Origin: a virus
Virus record (IMG/VR): IMGVR_UViG_3300029492_000060
Coordinates: 1 to 6,081 of that record
DNA: 6,081 nt
Direction: 5' to 3' (one strand)
The number at the start of each line of letters is the position of its first letter. The stretch's first letter is position 1. The notes beneath the pieces were generated by a model. It was not told the origin of the DNA. It searched no databases and worked only from the letters and a program-made list of their open reading frames with translations. Positions 159-6,081 of the stretch are shown piece after piece. The position numbers and the translations under genes are program-made.

Positions 159-467
159 TTATTTACGTTTATCAATCACTTGATGTCGATTACGACAACC
201 AAATGAAATGTGAATAAATGTAGGATATAATATCAATTGATCAAATACATGAATATTATCCGAATAACTATGGATATGTTCAAGCAACCGGCTATAAGTA
301 GTAGAGCCATAAGGCTTAATATCAATAGCCTCTCCAAACAAATGCTGCGAATTAGAGACGCCACCGGCAGCCTTATTTTCAGCAATAGAGCGCTTAGCAC
401 TTGTTATCGTAAAATGTAAGTTAAAAGACAACAGATGCTCAAGAAGATCCATAAGAGCACTATTCAT
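159..467 (-). CDS. Small zinc D,D-/L,D-peptidase of the M15 family (Peptidase_M15_3 / VanY-MepK-like fold). Candidate endolysin.
   Basis: ATG at 467..465 and TAA at 161..159, 102 aa. Motifs are ...FTITSAKRSIAENKAAGGVSNSQHLFGEAIDI... (family consensus itSGyRs..N..vGGa.nSqHl.G.AaDi). This gives the H-x6-D zinc ligands (H42 at 344..342, D49 at 323..321) plus the C-terminal FIHISF (H86 at 212..210) matching the fvHvD third ligand. Third-position-T codon usage matches the capsid gene. No signal peptide is present. Confidence 0.8.
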   Translation of the reverse strand: MNSALMDLLEHLLSFNLHFTITSAKRSIAENKAAGGVSNSQHLFGEAIDIKPYGSTTYSRLLEHIHSYSDNIHVFDQLILYPTFIHISFGCRNRHQVIDKRK

Positions 468-547
468 AATCCAATAGCATTAAGAATATAACCAAGAGCT
501 GCAGAAACAGCTCCAATCACAATTTTCCAAATATTATTACTTTTCAT
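464..547 (-). CDS. 27-aa single-pass membrane peptide (MKSNNIWKIVIGAVSAALGYILNAIGL). Holin-like or membrane-trigger candidate.
   Basis: ATG at 547..545. Its TGA (466..464) overlaps the peptidase ATG (467..465) as ATGA. It has a lysine-containing N-terminus followed by a 19-residue hydrophobic stretch. Its codons (agt aat aat att ... gct gtt tct gca gct ctt ggt tat att ctt aat gct att) follow the genome's NNT preference. The upstream part of the 81-aa ORF-track frame does not. Confidence 0.55.
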   Translation of the reverse strand: MKSNNIWKIVIGAVSAALGYILNAIGL

Positions 548-752
548 CACCTTGAATTTTATTACCTTGAATTTTAGATTCAACCTCAACAAAATTATTT
601 TCTTCTTTAATCGAATCCACAATAACAATAAGACCCAACGGAGAAACTCGCTCAGAATAATTTCCAAGACCATTGAGAGAATTAACGATATAAGGCGAAA
701 GAACATCACGACCAGTGTTTTTGTCTTTAACTGAGATAATAAATTTTTGCAT
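537..752 (-). CDS. Hypothetical 71-aa protein. It is the first gene after the promoter and its function is unknown.
   Basis: ATG at 752..750 and TAA at 539..537. NNT-biased codons run throughout (ttt att ... act ggt cgt gat gtt ctt ...). The sequence is non-hydrophobic and beta-strand-like, with a C-terminal KIQGNKIQGD duplication. I recognise no family motif. Confidence 0.65.
   Translation of the reverse strand: MQKFIISVKDKNTGRDVLSPYIVNSLNGLGNYSERVSPLGLIVIVDSIKEENNFVEVESKIQGNKIQGDEK
549..578. repeat. Tandem 15-bp direct repeat (accttgaattttatt / accttgaattttaga).
   Basis: Twelve identical nt (accttgaatttt) occur at 549..560 and 564..575. The repeat encodes KIQGN/KIQGD at the C-terminus of the 71-aa ORF and sits at the overlap with the start of the TM-peptide ORF. 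Confidence 0.8.
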
Positions 753-802
753 AATTGTAAGTTTTTAAAAAATTAATAATAGTTGTAACTTCTAACTGGG
801 GG

Positions 803-833
803 CAAATATACAAACTATTTTCATAAATCCAAA
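803..833 (-). promoter_or_regulatory. Bacteroidetes-type promoter: -33 TTTG (833..830), 19-nt spacer, -7 TATATTTG (810..803).
   Basis: The minus strand reads cTTTGgatttatgaaaatagtttgTATATTTGcc. This matches the Bacteroides primary-sigma consensus -33 TTTG / -7 TAnnTTTG. An A9 tract (plus-strand T-run 842..850) lies just upstream, and the first ATG (752) is about 50 nt downstream. In a manual scan I saw no other full CAAAnnTA match on the plus strand. Confidence 0.55.
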
Positions 834-900
834 GAAAACTATTTTTTTTTAGATTCTACCATAGAGTGTGAGTTGTGCGTTTATAGACAAGAAAAGAGAG

Positions 901-923
901 AATCCGAGAGGATAACTCGGATT
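901..923 (-). terminator. Perfect 8-bp hairpin (aatccgag / ctcggatt, 7-nt loop) followed on the coding strand by CTCTCTTTTCTTG. Candidate intrinsic terminator or structural signal.
   Basis: Arms at 901..908 and 916..923 are exact reverse complements. The hairpin is nested inside a longer imperfect stem (871..879 with 929..939, 9 bp with a 2-nt bulge). A pyrimidine/T-rich tail lies at 900..888 on the minus strand. Confidence 0.4.
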
Positions 924-967
924 TGCTTCGCACACAACTAGGGGCTTCGCTTAATTAACAAGTAAAT

Positions 968-1011
968 GTATATAGGGGTGTATAGGCACGGCAGGTCAGA
1001 TAGAACCTGCC
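968..1011. other. 7-bp hairpin (ggcaggt-cagataga-acctgcc, 990..1011) abutted by two 9-nt direct repeats at 10-nt period (gtatatagg 968..976, gtgtatagg 978..986).
   Basis: The arms are exact reverse complements. The two repeats are 8/9 identical and sit one helical turn apart, 3 nt from the stem. On the coding/viral-sense strand this reads GGCAGGT-TCTATCTG-ACCTGCC-GTG-CCTATACAC-C-CCTATATAC. Confidence 0.5.
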
Positions 1012-1035
1012 TTTGCGCACTCTGTGCTAAAATAC

Positions 1036-1079
1036 CGGAGCGGAACGCTCCTATAAAGAAGTCGCTCCGCTCCGTTTTT
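1036..1079 (-). terminator. GC-rich terminator-like hairpin with alternative pairings. It could work in either direction and lies downstream of VP2.
   Basis: cggagcgga (1036..1044) pairs perfectly (9 bp) with tccgctccg (1066..1074) and is followed by TTTTT (1075..1079) on the plus strand. On the minus strand the compact form GGAGCG-TTC-CGCTCC (1051..1037) is followed by GGTATTTTAG. CGCTCC occurs three times (1046, 1063, 1068) and competes for the single GGAGCG. Confidence 0.45.
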
Positions 1080-1151
1080 CGAACAGGCCCTACGCGGGCG
1101 GCGGGTGCATATCGCTCAAACGCCGCGATGGGCTTCTAGTCCTGAAGTATG

Positions 1152-2267
1152 TCATCTACGGCCTATACTATTACCGATACCTTGGAAAATACGGGTACCG
1201 TAATCAAGAGCATTACGCAATTCATAAGAATTAACGTCTTTCTGTTTCTGTTTAGAACTCCACTTATAATAATCACGTAAAGCCTTATCCTTAGAATATT
1301 CTATGTTCTTAAGAACATTGGTATTCTTAGAATCCCATAGAGAAGACAGACCACGAGCACGATTAGACTGAATATTAGCATAAATCAATGAATCAGCCGT
1401 TTGTTCGGCAATCTTATTACTAATACGAATACCATTTGTTTCAGCAGAAGTCTTAACGGCCTGTGCCATCTGATTTTTATATTGTGCTTCAGAAAGAGCA
1501 CCTTGAGCATAAAGATTAGCCAAAGTCTGACCTTTAATAAACAAATCAGCTTGCTGTTGCTCATCAAGATACTTATTTAATATTTGTTGAGCCTTAGAAT
1601 CGAGTAAAATCTGGGATTCTTGAGCCGAAGTAAGACGACCGGCAAACTCCATATTCTTAAGTTCTTGATACTCCTTAGACTGATCAAGCAAAGCAGACTT
1701 TCTACCAGTAGAGGCATTCCAATAGCCAGACTGGCCAACACCAATATTACGATAATTAGTATCGCCCAAGATCTGTTGCATCTTATACGGAGTAAGAGCA
1801 GCATTCTGTTCCGCATTAATCATGGCAGCACGAGCCTGTGCCATAGAAGCAAGAGCAGTACCAACATCCGAAAAATCGGGGCGGAAAGCCTGTAAACTAG
1901 GAGCAGAAGCAGCAGAAGCAGAAGCACCACCAGAAGCAGGGGCTCTAGAGCCAGCCATAGCAGCAGAACCTTGGACAAACGGGTTTAGACCACGAGAAAT
2001 CATCGCATTAGGAGAATTATAGGAATTGTTCATTCCCCACATTTTCTCCTGCCAATCACGTTGAATCTGTGCCTGTTGAGCATTAAATGCATTATTCTCA
2101 CGATTAATATCGATGCTAGTCTGGTTGGTCTTATTCTGCGAAGAAGCGCCAATAGCATTACCAGCGAGCGAAGCACCAGCAGCAATAATACCACCAAGAA
2201 CAAGCGGAGCAATATGTTTTTCGGAGTGCCCCATTAAGGGGCTTTCTCCGATATCATAGAACCTCAT
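1152..2267 (-). CDS. VP2: Minor capsid / DNA pilot protein VP2.
   Basis: 371 aa. The ATG at 2267..2265 overlaps the upstream TGA (ATGA). The N-terminus is a Gly/Ala-rich hydrophobic segment (IAPLVLGGIIAAGASLAGNAIGA). It is followed by NRENNAFNAQQAQIQRDWQEKMWGMNNSYNSPNAMISRGLNPF, the pattern (N..F...A...R.WQE.M...N.Y.SP......GLNP) I recognise from microvirus VP2 proteins. The rest is coiled-coil-like and Gln/Ala-rich. An alternative start is Met12 (2234). Confidence 0.85.
   Translation of the reverse strand: MRFYDIGESPLMGHSEKHIAPLVLGGIIAAGASLAGNAIGASSQNKTNQTSIDINRENNAFNAQQAQIQRDWQEKMWGMNNSYNSPNAMISRGLNPFVQGSAAMAGSRAPASGGASASAASAPSLQAFRPDFSDVGTALASMAQARAAMINAEQNAALTPYKMQQILGDTNYRNIGVGQSGYWNASTGRKSALLDQSKEYQELKNMEFAGRLTSAQESQILLDSKAQQILNKYLDEQQQADLFIKGQTLANLYAQGALSEAQYKNQMAQAVKTSAETNGIRISNKIAEQTADSLIYANIQSNRARGLSSLWDSKNTNVLKNIEYSKDKALRDYYKWSSKQKQKDVNSYELRNALDYGTRIFQGIGNSIGRR
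1903..1938. repeat. Imperfect (GCAGAA)n low-complexity tract inside VP2.
   Basis: gcagaa gca gcagaa gcagaa gcacca ccagaa gca. It encodes PASGGASASAASAPS on the coding strand and creates the Ala/Glu-rich shadow ORF 1822..2022 on the other strand. Confidence 0.7.
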
Positions 2268-2719: not shown

Positions 2720-4462
2720 TTAATAAGGTAAACCATTTCTATCCAAGTTCTGAACAGCATATACTTGGAAATTAACATTACACAACAACTGGTCAAACGC
2801 AACAGAGCAATTAGCAGCATCAATTTGCGGAGCAAATATAGAATTCAACTGTTGAGGACGTACCTTCATGGATTGATAAGACCAAGCACCAGCAGAAGTC
2901 AACACTTGCCAACCATCAAGAGGAGCAACCCAAGATTGATAAGCAGCACCAGCACGGAATCCAGCGTGAACAGTATCAATATTAGATTTCCATTGCCAAT
3001 AGCGGAGGTTATAACCAAGAGAACCGGAAACATTACGGCCGGGGTTATTCTGAAGATTCAGAGCAGGAACAGCTTGCATGCCAAGCTGATCAAATGCAGG
3101 TTGCGGGAAGTCAGATATAGCGGTCACAGTCAATTGAGGAGCCTGACCAGTCAGATTCCAATCCAACATAGGTACAGCGTGATAGACACACATAATCACC
3201 TGATGTTCAGCGCCACAGTCATAAGTAATAGTATGTCCAGAGTTACTAGATACACCTTTACCAGCAATAGAAGCCTGAGAGGAATCGGTATCAAGATTAG
3301 TATTAACTACCTCATTAATATTAATAACACTAGACCAGCCTCCAATATAATGGGAATGATTACCCATATATTCGGGAGCCTTGATACCAAATTGGGCAGC
3401 CATCTGATCTGAATAATCCTTACTAGAGAACTGAACTACCTCTTTCCAGCGTTGAAGATACTCTGTTGCACGAATTGAAAGGGCGGAAAGGTCAGTATTG
3501 ACACGAAGCAGGCTATCAGAATTAGTAGAGTTGGATGAAGTTGTCTGCACAGTATTACCGCTAGCAGGATTACGAACAGATGAATTACTAATACCATCAG
3601 TAGCACGAGCCAAAACAACATTAGTAGGTAGCGTTCTGTCAAGAGGCGAAAGGAGCGCTACTGAACCATACTGAGACGAGGGAAGCATACCCATAAAATA
3701 ATCCTTCGGATAGTTTGCATAGCGCAATTTAACCATATCCGTAACTAATGAAATCTGGCCAGAACCGGACCAATAGTCAACATTGTAAGCATAAGCCAAA
3801 TGTTTCTCCCATTGAGAATTGCTATAGAAATCATAGTAAATCTTCTGATAAGCAAGGAATGGAAGGGCATTAACTGTCTGCGAATTCTGATAAACCAAAG
3901 GATTAGCAGCATCACCAAGAGCATCAACACCTAGATATTTTTTAGTAATAGCAGCCTTACCTGTATTAGTACTAGCAATCATAGAACCATAGCCAAGCAA
4001 ATCAAGCAATTTGCAAGAACCATAGACAATAGGGAGGCCTGCATCGTCACGGGTATTAGTTTGGTCACCAGCATTAGCCGTCTGAAGGAACACATTAAAA
4101 AGGCTCTGAGTAACATTAGGTACAGAAGTAAGCACAGACGTATTCGCAGTAGAACTAGCCGCGCTAGTCATATAGTCCGTCATCTGCGTAAATGCCTGTG
4201 GAAGCGCACGAGAAATCAGACGTAACGGCACAGCATAGAAGTCATAATATTCCTTGATACGAGTATAAGCAGCCGTATTAACCGGAACAGTACGGGTAAA
4301 CCAATCCGAAGAAATACGATACTTGTTGCCGGGAATAGCAATCTGCCAATAGCAAGGAAGAATTTCACCTACTTTAGCTGTAAACAATTTTTTCGAACTT
4401 AAATCGAAAGAGGACCGATGGGTAGGAATCTTAGCATGGTCCAAAGGGTTAAAATCACTCAT
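2720..4462 (-). CDS. VP1: Major capsid protein VP1 (phiX174 F-like jelly-roll).
   Basis: 580 aa, ATG at 4462..4460. The N-terminus SSFDLSSKKLFTAKVGEILPCYWQIAIPGNKYRISSDWFTRTVPVNTAAYTRIKEYYDFYAVPLRLI matches the microvirus VP1 signature (fdlS....t...G.L.P....v.PGd......f.R..P......i....ffFVP.Rl.w). NNT codon bias is very strong. It is the longest ORF in the genome. Confidence 0.92.
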   Translation of the reverse strand: MSDFNPLDHAKIPTHRSSFDLSSKKLFTAKVGEILPCYWQIAIPGNKYRISSDWFTRTVPVNTAAYTRIKEYYDFYAVPLRLISRALPQAFTQMTDYMTSAASSTANTSVLTSVPNVTQSLFNVFLQTANAGDQTNTRDDAGLPIVYGSCKLLDLLGYGSMIASTNTGKAAITKKYLGVDALGDAANPLVYQNSQTVNALPFLAYQKIYYDFYSNSQWEKHLAYAYNVDYWSGSGQISLVTDMVKLRYANYPKDYFMGMLPSSQYGSVALLSPLDRTLPTNVVLARATDGISNSSVRNPASGNTVQTTSSNSTNSDSLLRVNTDLSALSIRATEYLQRWKEVVQFSSKDYSDQMAAQFGIKAPEYMGNHSHYIGGWSSVININEVVNTNLDTDSSQASIAGKGVSSNSGHTITYDCGAEHQVIMCVYHAVPMLDWNLTGQAPQLTVTAISDFPQPAFDQLGMQAVPALNLQNNPGRNVSGSLGYNLRYWQWKSNIDTVHAGFRAGAAYQSWVAPLDGWQVLTSAGAWSYQSMKVRPQQLNSIFAPQIDAANCSVAFDQLLCNVNFQVYAVQNLDRNGLPY

Positions 4463-4480
4463 AATTAATTAATATTAAAA

Positions 4481-6079
4481 TTAAACCATACGATTGAAAA
4501 TATTATTAGCATCATTAAGCTTCTTATGCTTAATCATATCACGACAGAATGTTGCACTACGATACCGGAGTTGCTCAAGAAGTTGAACCGTTTCACATGA
4601 AACGTCCGACAAGACATCACGCTCCTGCCCGTTCGCAGGCAACGCAAACATACAATCCGATATGTCCGGGTTAGCGGAGCGTATGTTGAATACATCTCGT
4701 AAATTTTCATAATCCTTTTTCTTCTCATAGTCTATACCTGTTTTAATGATAAACATAATACGACCGGAAAAAGCACTAATATCAGAACCGAAGGAAGGCA
4801 AATGCCAATTACGGAAGAACTTAAAGACATATAAGAATAACCGATATAACTTATTAATAAAAGACTTAATATCGACATCGCTAGAACAGTTAACAAACCT
4901 AGTAAGACACCGAGAAGAATGTAATATAATCTTGTCATCATCAGTAAGAATAGGATTAACTTTAAGATATTGGTAATAAGTACGAACAAGGCTCAAGACT
5001 GAATCCTGTTTATAGTCGATGAATCCATATTTTGCAATTCTTTGCGGCGTCCGGTGAACAGCACGAAGAATTCTAGCAACCGCAATACTATCGTCATTGC
5101 GAGCAGACGAGAATCGGGGCAATAGGGTACGGATATACGACATGGGTGGAGTTGACCGAACACTGATGCCGTTGAAGTTATAGACTCTTCCGTTAACGAC
5201 AGAATCGATTTTTTGTTCAATCTGCGCATAAGGGTCTTCACCTTCCAAGAAATCACAACCTTTTTCAAAGAATCCAAGAGAAGCCCTCGACCGGGGTTTA
5301 AATGAGCGGCATGAGCGATATAATAGGGGAGCAGAACTAAGGCTGTTAACGTAACTCGCAACGTACGAACTAGCTCCACCAGCGGAACGTTGGAAATCTG
5401 AACGACCGAGTTTCCAACTCTTACCGTGACAGTATCGTAAAACCTCGGCGACTTTGTCCGAGTTTGTGAATAATAAGAGATGATAATGCGGGCGGAAATG
5501 CACGGGTCCATACTCGCCCACAGCGTAGAAATGTAGCGGTTCATAAGAGCCTAATTTTAAAGATAAATGTTTACGCAAACGCTTAACATAATTCTGAACA
5601 TCAACATAATTTAAGAAGGGAATAAGATTATCACGACCGTATTGTAAAGAAACGGGATAATCCGTTTTTTCAACGGCCTGCGTCTTAGTGATAAAACTAC
5701 GAATAGCATCCATACTAAGAAACCAATTATCCCTAATAGGAACATATTCTTTAATCTCGCGGTCATACGGTACAGTACCCTGTACTTGTTCGAAAAAAAT
5801 ATGACGCAACACGGAGCTATCATCACATTGATACCCAGAAACGGGAATATATTTATGATATTCATCACCAAAATGAATATCTCCTGAGATACCTACAACG
5901 TCCTCATATTCACTATGTAGAACTTTACAATTAAATAAAGGAATATGTTCGTTATCATACGTAAGTGTCACAAAATAAGAATACTTAAAGGCACTTCCAG
6001 CGGTCTTCACACGCATGGACGCCTTTTGAGCACGCTTATGAATACAATAATCACATTGACCACAATCCACGGCAATACG
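4481..6079 (-). CDS. VP4: Replication initiation protein VP4 (HUH rolling-circle endonuclease, phiX174 gpA-like). The 5' end runs off the window edge and is completed by 156..1. Full length is 559 aa.
   Basis: Motif I is FVTLTYD (5974..5954). The HUH motif is HYHLLLF (5488..5468). The two-tyrosine motif is YVASYVNS (5365..5342; compare phiX174 gpA YVAKYVNK). The TAA stop is at 4483..4481. The frame stays open to the window end and joins the ATG at 156 through the 77-nt overlap. Confidence 0.93.
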   Translation of the reverse strand, partial: RIAVDCGQCDYCIHKRAQKASMRVKTAGSAFKYSYFVTLTYDNEHIPLFNCKVLHSEYEDVVGISGDIHFGDEYHKYIPVSGYQCDDSSVLRHIFFEQVQGTVPYDREIKEYVPIRDNWFLSMDAIRSFITKTQAVEKTDYPVSLQYGRDNLIPFLNYVDVQNYVKRLRKHLSLKLGSYEPLHFYAVGEYGPVHFRPHYHLLLFTNSDKVAEVLRYCHGKSWKLGRSDFQRSAGGASSYVASYVNSLSSAPLLYRSCRSFKPRSRASLGFFEKGCDFLEGEDPYAQIEQKIDSVVNGRVYNFNGISVRSTPPMSYIRTLLPRFSSARNDDSIAVARILRAVHRTPQRIAKYGFIDYKQDSVLSLVRTYYQYLKVNPILTDDDKIILHSSRCLTRFVNCSSDVDIKSFINKLYRLFLYVFKFFRNWHLPSFGSDISAFSGRIMFIIKTGIDYEKKKDYENLRDVFNIRSANPDISDCMFALPANGQERDVLSDVSCETVQLLEQLRYRSATFCRDMIKHKKLNDANNIFNRMV

Positions 6080-6081
6080 TG

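Follow-up and report, generated by a model that had tools for sequence, protein, structure and literature searches.

The DNA analyzed here, referred to as the window, is the 6,081-nt IMG/VR virus record IMGVR_UViG_3300029492_000060. It contains one circular microvirus genome of 6004 nt, with bases 1–77 recurring at 6005–6081 as a terminal redundancy, and every gene of this genome is carried on the minus strand (Table 1). This study concerns a 27-codon open reading frame (ORF), termed the mini-ORF, which is located between an ORF of 71 amino acids (aa), orf71, and a gene for an M15 peptidase; the replication initiator gene (Rep) starts 2 nt past the peptidase stop. An earlier note, prepared from the letters of the window, had proposed that the mini-ORF encodes a transmembrane (TM) peptide coupled to the peptidase as a holin/endolysin-style pair. 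The results presented below confirmed that the mini-ORF is a real gene under very strong purifying constraint. The existence of the gene is solid, while its function is something we infer: judging from sequence comparisons, the chances are about even that its product is the membrane-acting component of the lysis system of this virus group.

Table 1. Genes and other features of the window.
Feature	Position	Strand	Remark
Rep, replication initiator, 559 aa	156..1 then 6004..4481	-	start codon 154..156; wraps window origin
Major capsid protein VP1	4462..2720	-	
Scaffold-like ORF, 147 aa	2707..2264	-	
Pilot protein VP2	2267..1152	-	
Non-coding stretch, about 400 nt	753-1151		between VP2 and orf71
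Promoter candidate	803..833	-	Bacteroides-type consensus TTTG-N19-TAnnTTTG; about 50 nt upstream of orf71 ATG
orf71, 71-aa ORF	752..537	-	stop 539..537
Overlap of orf71 and mini-ORF, 11 nt	537..547	-	orf71 end …GAT GAA AAG TAA; mini-ORF start ATG AAA AGT AA…
Mini-ORF, 27 codons	547..464	-	
ATGA junction	464..467	-	termination-reinitiation type; 13/13 genomes compared
Peptidase, 102 aa	467..159	-	

A 27-codon gene between orf71 and the peptidase

The mini-ORF reads ATG AAA AGT ... GGA TTA TGA and encodes the 27-aa peptide MKSNNIWKIVIGAVSAALGYILNAIGL; direct reading of the sequence agreed with the earlier note on this point. Its stop codon TGA (466..464) and the ATG of the peptidase (467..465) have three bases in common, giving the ATGA overlap that had been described, and an [AG]TGA junction at the same offset was found at all 88 measured junctions of related genomes (GTGA in loci L021 and L042). 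The codons forming this junction vary synonymously (GGA/GGT/GGC/GGG followed by TTA/CTA/CTG/TTG). At its other end, the mini-ORF does start inside the preceding ORF, although the overlap is 11 nt including the stop codon of orf71 and not 10 nt as had been claimed. The same arrangement is also found in relatives.

Several lines of evidence identify the mini-ORF as a gene. First, it is present in frame in 12 of 12 GenBank relatives. Second, IMG/VR was sampled in two ways that are independent of the mini-ORF, namely through the peptidase and through orf71. The mini-ORF is intact in all 90 evaluable peptidase-ascertained loci from IMG/VR and GenBank (the 88 measured junctions and 2 loci added; 2 further loci, cut by contig ends, were excluded) and in 78 of 79 evaluable orf71-ascertained loci, with ATG as the start codon in 76 and GTG in 2. 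Third, substitutions were analyzed in 73 distinct mini-ORF/peptidase pairs over codons 5–26, which overlap no other gene. The ratio of nonsynonymous to synonymous substitution rates (dN/dS) of the mini-ORF is 0.067 at a synonymous divergence (dS) of 0.60, compared to 0.21 at a dS of 0.82 for the peptidase in the same pairs, and it rises to 1.4 and 11 when the mini-ORF bases are read in the other two frames. The mean pairwise amino acid identity is 92% for the peptide versus 75% for the peptidase, and the entropy of the mini-ORF by codon position is 0.23/0.007/0.77. Conservation of the frame in relatives with a dN/dS below 1 and conservation of the ATGA junction were among the checks that the earlier note had recommended, and both came out as it had anticipated.

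These data bear on the possibility that the mini-ORF yields no functional protein, being a coupling leader (upstream ORF, or uORF) for the peptidase or a conserved nucleic acid element in which the open frame is incidental. An ATGA junction could on its own be enough for coupling, stops are generally scarce in the +1 frames of this genome, and a hairpin-like inverted repeat is found inside the mini-ORF at 514..495. However, this repeat relies on a GCA codon that occurs in only 8 of 116 sequences, and a conserved hairpin was rejected as not conserved. Furthermore, the alternative frames give dN/dS values above 1 over codons that are free of any other gene, and the mini-ORF sequence is kept in genomes that have no peptidase to couple (see below). 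Because synonymous sites vary (dS 0.6) while amino acids stay fixed, the substitution pattern excludes a nucleic acid element or a mere coupling leader, and the probability left to an explanation of this kind is very small.

Codon usage also distinguishes the mini-ORF from its surroundings. As had been argued from the sequence, it uses the NNT codons typical of the genome (64%, compared to 41–57% in the known genes), whereas the same frame upstream of it (548..709) has 19% NNT and 65% NTN codons. Across the genome, stops occur at 1.7–5.4 per 100 codons in +1 frames versus 12–18 in +2 frames, because the genes are biased toward codons ending in T and stop codons need A or G in the middle position. 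An 81-aa ORF covering this region (464..709) was rejected as a real product on account of its upstream codons; it is a by-product, since its upstream part is the +1 frame of the NNT-biased orf71, in which openness is expected. Thus, codon usage supports the view that the short ORF is the real unit. Owing to the T-ending codon bias, each gene has a +1 frame with few stops and many Leu, Ile, Phe, and Val codons, and this yields long, hydrophobic-looking spurious ORFs that form a trap for claims of overprinted genes in such genomes. The long ORFs off the gene frame include one of 215 aa antisense to VP1 (2765–3412, plus strand).

The expectation that gene callers would miss the mini-ORF was borne out by the GenBank records, none of the 12 of which annotates it, but not by protein databases, in which about 324 proteins contain it. 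These versions are mostly 29–40 aa, or 60–90 aa with spurious upstream starts, and are called hypothetical or mislabeled. All of them are from contigs of at most about 15 kb (mostly about 6 kb), and the organism, where named, is Microviridae. A 124-aa "peptidase / hypothetical protein" is annotated in L009 (3999–4373), L011 (3985–4359), and L332 (3935–4309), which correspond to PP511391, PP511887, and PP511602. This annotation hides the mini-ORF because an upstream ATG was used, and the conserved start lies 21 codons further, at the ATGA. The 124-aa "peptidase" of Dulem viruses 243, 238, and 226 was considered as a possible TM fusion and rejected, because reading the peptidase frame across the region of the mini-ORF yields the extension (MEDYHWSCFRCS…), which is distinct from the TM peptide, and the mini-ORF is intact in its own frame in all three viruses.

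The M15 peptidase and its linkage to small membrane ORFs

The 102-aa protein encoded downstream of the mini-ORF matches Pfam PF08291 Peptidase_M15_3 (40.1 bits versus a cut-off of 23.2; E 4e-10) and PHROG 894 endolysin (E 2e-15). Its zinc ligands, H-x6-D…H (H42, D49, and H86), are invariant, and it is weakly similar to the T5 L-alanyl-D-glutamate endolysin 2mxz (E 0.003). It has no signal peptide or TM segment (maximum Kyte–Doolittle value, KD17, 1.10). An AlphaFold2 (AF2) model with a predicted local distance difference test score (pLDDT) of 74 found no match in the PDB at E ≤ 0.001 and weak Peptidase M15A matches in BFVD (TM-scores 0.4–0.58). From these similarities, the protein is a putative endolysin of the M15_3/M15A zinc peptidase type. 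Peptidases of this type in Alpavirinae and Gokushovirinae were already reported by Roux et al. 2012 (PMC3394797) as horizontally acquired putative endolysins; the authors remarked that the homologues in tailed prophages are accompanied by holins, and the microvirus peptidase lacks a signal peptide and has no known route through the membrane (PMC3394797).

In three microvirus lineages, an M15 peptidase is linked to a tiny TM ORF. In a sister clade (VP1 about 36% identical), a 29-aa ORF (MKSETKSKIWSAIIAAAVSLLTSIAQIFS) separates the orf71 homologue from the peptidase, in most genomes leaving a gap of 3 nt before the latter, and 51 of 51 IMG/VR genomes with this mini-ORF have the peptidase as well; the peptide hardly changes among them, whereas peptidase identity drops to 66%. 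In six pig-gut microviruses of other lineages, treated here as the third lineage, an ORF of 29–30 aa (for example, MTKEQLNKISNALCALISAVCAALSYFFS, MLTKEKLTRISNGICALISAICAAISYFLN, and MTKEKFNKVINVVCALISAIGAAIATLLN) is found just downstream of the peptidase and just before Rep, and it overlaps the peptidase end in five of the six. The third-lineage peptides resemble the window peptide beyond composition (shuffle p 0.0002–0.002), with ISAVCAALSY aligning to IGAVSAALGY of the window.

Two genomes, MG945328 and MG945336, are described in Kirchberger et al. 2022 (PMC9239249) as having a peptidase region of about 700 nt in common despite a VP1 identity of 21%, and this region is reported there as exchanged between families. 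An alignment of these genomes gave a shared stretch, probably the reported exchanged region, that extends over most of the mini-ORF; therefore, the peptidase and the third-lineage mini-ORF appear to have moved together. Searches of IMG/VR with the third-lineage peptidase and mini-ORF returned nothing useful.

Tailed-phage contigs with homologous peptidases contain ORFs for TM proteins of 50–155 aa, which often overlap the peptidase start by 4 nt, the position that is classical for a holin. A much smaller ORF was also seen in a 49.8-kb tailed-phage contig (L378, 1494–1574), where a 26-aa single-TM ORF (MCPICIVKAILAGLLILIGVKKKGSN) overlaps the end of an M15 peptidase by 1 nt. Very small membrane ORFs beside the M15 endolysin family may thus not be confined to microviruses.

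The position of the mini-ORF immediately 5′ of the enzyme could also mean that it is a signal-anchor N-terminus of the peptidase, similar to signal-arrest-release (SAR) domains, with a frameshift connecting the two or a sequencing error having separated them. The Gly/Ala/Ser-rich and weakly hydrophobic TM segment does resemble SAR domains. However, a SAR-like N-terminus was rejected, as the stop and the frame offset are kept in 88 of 88 junctions while synonymous codons vary and no slippery heptamer is found. Moreover, a stop and in most cases a further 3 nt precede the enzyme in the second clade, the third-lineage mini-ORF is located downstream of the enzyme, and no fused protein appears among the best 120 database matches listed. 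An N-terminus of this type is barely credible.

Proposed role of the peptide and alternative explanations

The head of the peptide (M1–K8) is polar/basic, and its two lysines (K2 and K8) are the only charges in the peptide. The next 19 residues (I9–L27) have a Kyte–Doolittle mean of 2.01, and the hydrophobic segment reaches the C-terminus; hydropathy thus supports the prediction of a single-pass membrane peptide. By the positive-inside rule, the N-terminus would be inside, and insertion would be post-translational and tail-anchor-like because the segment runs to the C-terminus. Among 34 distinct peptides, W7, K8, I11, G12, A13, S15, A16, A17, G19, Y20, L22, N23, and G26 are invariant. The often-variable positions 10, 14, 21, and 24 (V/I/L and A/S) lie on one side of the helical wheel, at about 280 degrees, and G12, S15, A16, G19, N23, and G26 face the other way, at about 110 degrees; the angular clustering of all variable positions has a p of about 0.06. 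Such a stripe of small residues with a buried Asn would suggest tight helix–helix packing, either in self-association or with a partner helix, and not passive anchoring. The constraint on the helix is much above the need of a plain anchor.

Comparison of the peptide with Pfam, PHROGs, and NCBIfam assigned it to no family (best PHROG match, E 0.47). When protein collections were searched with a duplicated 27-aa query, the best 120 matches listed were unnamed or had hypothetical or spurious names, and every organism given was Microviridae. Homology to the N-terminal TM segment of the pilot protein VP2, with which the peptide has NAIG in common, was considered and found not significant (p 0.18).

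The best current candidate for the role of the peptide, as far as these features can indicate, is a core membrane-acting lysis effector to which the peptidase would be accessory. The peptide would share one tightly packed message with orf71, the peptidase, and Rep, and peptide and peptidase would probably be made in a fixed ratio because the mini-ORF stop overlaps the peptidase start. It would be a single-pass inner-membrane peptide of the tail-anchored type, with the N-terminus containing K2 and K8 in the cytoplasm and I9–L27 spanning the membrane. Copies would pack through the invariant G12/S15/A16/G19/N23/G26 face and accumulate, and the accumulated peptide might breach or depolarize the cytoplasmic membrane in the manner of a holin, a pinholin, or the type I toxin TisB. 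In genomes such as that of the window, the membrane damage would let the signal-less M15 murein peptidase reach the wall; in relatives lacking this enzyme, the task would fall to the peptide by itself, e.g., through the unleashing of host autolysins. We infer each of these elements, namely translation, topology, oligomerization, membrane damage, and the role in lysis. In a broader form of the proposal, a very abundant clade of mammalian-gut microviruses would rely on the peptide as a self-sufficient core lysis effector, acting alone in genomes without the peptidase and otherwise as a gate for a horizontally acquired endolysin, with the related 29–30-aa peptides acting likewise in other microvirus families. 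This broader form is tentative and falls somewhat on the doubtful side of even.

Several observations weigh against a lysis effector paired with the peptidase. First, about 11 complete genomes of the same clade keep the mini-ORF without the peptidase; such genomes make up about 14% of those of the clade that were ascertained through orf71. Nine of the 11 were collected through a peptide motif and two (L458 and L507) through orf71, and absence of the peptidase refers to whole-genome tblastn at E ≤ 0.01 for the nine and to the 600 nt downstream for L458 and L507. In these genomes, orf71 is followed by the mini-ORF (peptide end …LSAIGV), and a T-rich spacer of 52 nt then leads to Rep, which is 80–88% identical to that of the window. 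Among the nine, the mini-ORF retains its constraint, with a dN/dS of 0.075 at a dS of 0.70, a value biased somewhat downwards by the use of codons 12–20 as part of the search pattern. Equal purifying selection in genomes that lack the peptidase means that the peptide has an independent function. It is more than a helper of the peptidase and, unlike that enzyme, cannot be dispensed with.

Second, the charged hydrophilic C-terminal tail typical of holins is absent, as the peptide ends with the TM segment (…NAIGL and stop), and no described holin family is homologous to it. To our knowledge, a peptide of 27 aa without a charged tail is smaller and simpler than any holin. Third, a membrane lesion alone does not obviously release virions of 25–30 nm through intact murein. 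Fourth, adjacency is weaker evidence here than in a large genome because 6-kb genomes hold nearly all accessory genes between VP2 and Rep. In mar63 (L423), orf58 abuts the peptidase with no mini-ORF between them. In two other clades without the peptidase, an ORF of about 60 aa is found between the orf71 homologue and Rep (L335, about 4472–4665; L336, 4657–4848); it has an N-terminal hydrophobic segment with a lipobox-like end (…LTAQSC or …CVQAC) followed by TLSLSVSKNN, and it may be a lipoprotein-type counterpart of the mini-ORF. Finally, the single degenerate mini-ORF is in a peptidase-less genome (L453; IMGVR_UViG_3300045988_000119, about 780–870 of the locus), in which the copy reads VKRDSIWKIVIDAVSVALDYILNP before its stop, with G12D, A16V, and G19D plus the premature stop; it could reflect a defective genome, an assembly error, or a genuine loss. 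Overall, the TM peptide and its conserved ATGA junction with a signal-less M15 peptidase speak for the proposed holin/endolysin pair, whereas the lack of an obligate pairing, of a charged tail, and of a holin family speaks against it.

The spacer between the mini-ORF stop and the Rep ATG (L093, L133, L138, L151, L160, L164, L180, L190, and L198) has a feature of its own. In most peptidase-less genomes, the 52-nt spacer ends in …TTTCAGGCTCTTGGTTAT directly before the ATG, which is closely like mini-ORF codons 15–20 (TCTGCAGCTCTTGGTTAT). This end may be a partial duplication from an event that removed the peptidase or that preceded its insertion.

The equal constraint on the peptide in peptidase-less genomes would also fit a "protein antibiotic" of the single-gene lysis (Sgl) type. 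On this reading, the peptide would make no holes; it would inhibit a conserved membrane enzyme with which the host makes or exports murein precursors, and the dispensable peptidase would complete the destruction of the sacculus once it has first ruptured. Roughly three quarters of the helix surface does not vary across genomes in which other proteins diverge to 50–65% identity, which fits a specific protein target, and single-gene lysis is the known strategy of small phages (PMC3394797). However, Pfam and PHROG searches showed no similarity to E or to any described Sgl, and the three mini-ORF types differ considerably although conserved targets would be expected. An inhibitor of this type would also leave unexplained both the translational coupling of a cytoplasmic, signal-less peptidase to the peptide in most genomes and the travel of a homologue of the peptide together with the peptidase between families. 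It is an unlikely explanation but the leading rival among those that invoke lysis.

A role outside lysis, such as superinfection exclusion, anchoring of replication or assembly, or a virion-associated entry peptide, is about as likely as an Sgl-type inhibitor. Adjacency to the peptidase would then reflect a single accessory slot. The independence of the mini-ORF from the peptidase in about one in seven of the orf71-ascertained genomes, its constant placement after orf71 and before Rep, and the different small membrane or lipoprotein-like ORF that takes this slot in L335 and L336 are all in agreement with such a role. In contrast, both gene orders show linkage with the peptidase, and one homologue is part of the peptidase-bearing stretch that two genomes of different families have in common. 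In addition, the similarity to the TM segment of the pilot protein VP2 is not significant, and a plain anchor or exclusion factor is not expected to be the most conserved protein of the genome.

Genome context and relation to known lysis systems

The nearest GenBank relatives of the window are microviruses from feces, saliva, and vagina of dog, lemur, human, and marmot, and the VP1/VP2/VP4 gene set and the gut or fecal sources were confirmed for the window group, which may belong to the Bacteroidota-infecting Alpavirinae-like microviruses. The ORF list gives only a GTG-started part of Rep (529 aa) because the gene crosses the window origin. The distal half of the non-coding stretch (about 900–1150) has a G+C content of 50–53%, compared to about 30–38% elsewhere in the genome, and two G+C-rich hairpins followed by T-runs are found in this stretch at 1051..1037 and 923..901 on the minus strand. 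No RNA family of Rfam was matched anywhere in the window, the non-coding stretch included. The stretch could be an origin, a packaging signal, or a terminator region. Bacteroides-type promoters have the consensus given in Table 1, which matches the window once versus 0.21 matches expected, a result that is statistically weak although the placement is correct; the match is a candidate promoter of the orf71/mini-ORF/peptidase/Rep block. For a host or prophage link, genome contigs were scanned with a degenerate pattern for GAxSAALGY, and the matches listed were due to chance only, occurring in unrelated, mostly GC-rich genomes.

The upstream neighbor, orf71, has 2847 homologues in the database, all hypothetical and without a Pfam domain, with a family size of 64–71 aa. 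In all related clades examined, they directly precede the small membrane ORF. The AF2 model of orf71 (pLDDT 71) has a three-stranded sheet plus a disordered acidic tail, and its own family was the sole match in structure libraries. A 15-nt tandem duplication (ACCTTGAATTTTA at 549–561 and 564–576, plus strand), which encodes KIQGN-KIQGD, lengthens orf71 to 71 aa (64 aa in most relatives) just upstream of the mini-ORF start. Three database proteins (P0157, P0175, and P0344), each from one short contig, fuse orf71 in frame with the mini-ORF, and the loss of one A from an A-run (…CTT AAA ACT… or …GAA AAG TAA…) accounts for each of them. A real fusion was rejected, as these isolated cases with 1-nt A-run deletions are probably homopolymer sequencing errors. 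AAA_A would also permit a +1 ribosomal slip that tethers orf71 to the membrane.

Compared to known lysis systems, the mini-ORF and its proposed role as a core lysis effector exhibit several similarities and differences. In its proposed working, it is most like a holin–endolysin cassette in miniature. In the holin–endolysin cassettes of tailed phages with M15 endolysins (T5 and IMG/VR contigs L349–L414), a membrane gene likewise lies directly upstream of a signal-less M15 peptidase, often with a 4-nt ATGA overlap, which implies co-expression of a membrane component and a wall-degrading enzyme. However, the partners in these cassettes are 50–155 aa, whereas the window peptide is 27 aa long, lacks a charged tail, and has a single TM segment that ends at the C-terminus; its virus is a single-stranded DNA microvirus, and some relatives keep the peptide without the endolysin.

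The Sgl proteins, including E of phiX174 (91 aa, an MraY inhibitor), LysM of phage M (37 aa, a MurJ inhibitor), and L of MS2, are also very small membrane proteins of minimal phage genomes, and in the peptidase-less relatives the mini-ORF would be the only recognizable lysis candidate. There is no sequence similarity between them, and the phiX174 E family of Pfam did not match the peptide. Unlike Sgl phages, which by definition lack a muralytic enzyme, most genomes with the mini-ORF have one beside it. Furthermore, the E gene is embedded in gene D, while the mini-ORF is free-standing except for its 11-nt and 4-nt end overlaps.

In the pinholin/SAR-endolysin system of phage 21 (S68 and R21), a small membrane protein with a Gly/Ala/Ser-rich, weakly hydrophobic helix serves depolarization. 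The window enzyme differs in having no SAR or signal domain, and the TM helix is a separate polypeptide. Chromosomal type I toxins such as TisB (29 aa) have depolarizing activity, a mode of action that is plausible for the peptide by likeness, and they are similar to it in size, in their single helix, and in their predicted N-in topology. The mini-ORF is viral and has no sequence similarity to them, and no antisense RNA partner was seen, although none was looked for.

The window peptidase gene belongs to the M15_3 peptidase genes treated in two earlier papers, Roux et al. 2012 (PMC3394797) and Kirchberger et al. 2022 (PMC9239249). The passages of these papers that matched the search terms do not describe a membrane partner of the microvirus peptidase; the latter paper states that overprinted genes were omitted. 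For microviruses outside the phiX174 group, no lysis gene is known, and these viruses lack an E-like gene (PMC7062461). A non-exhaustive full-text literature search combining microvirus with peptidase, holin, transmembrane, or lysis found no description of such a peptide, nor is one mentioned in the matching passages of Roux 2012, Kirchberger 2022, Kirchberger and Ochman 2020, Krupovic and Forterre 2011, Zucker 2022, and a 2022 Virus Evolution paper on reekeekee- and roodoodooviruses (PMC9865509). The novelty that the earlier note had claimed for a lysis system in Microviridae thus applies in part: the idea of the peptidase as an endolysin is already found in Roux et al. 2012 (PMC3394797), and only the membrane partner is, as far as these searches show, new.

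For annotation, the results mean that small-phage annotation systematically misses, or gives a wrong start to, the most conserved gene, as illustrated by its omission from 12 of 12 GenBank relatives. For the biology of the family, the mini-ORF provides a concrete hypothesis on how microviruses outside the phiX174 group lyse their hosts, and at 84 nt this hypothesis is cheaply testable. Microviruses of the window type are among the most abundant phages of the mammalian gut. Should the peptide prove lytic, no smaller phage lysis protein would have been described, and it could also be a new antibacterial peptide against Bacteroidales, either membrane-active or target-specific; it would then offer the first handle on host lysis by microviruses outside the phiX174 group.

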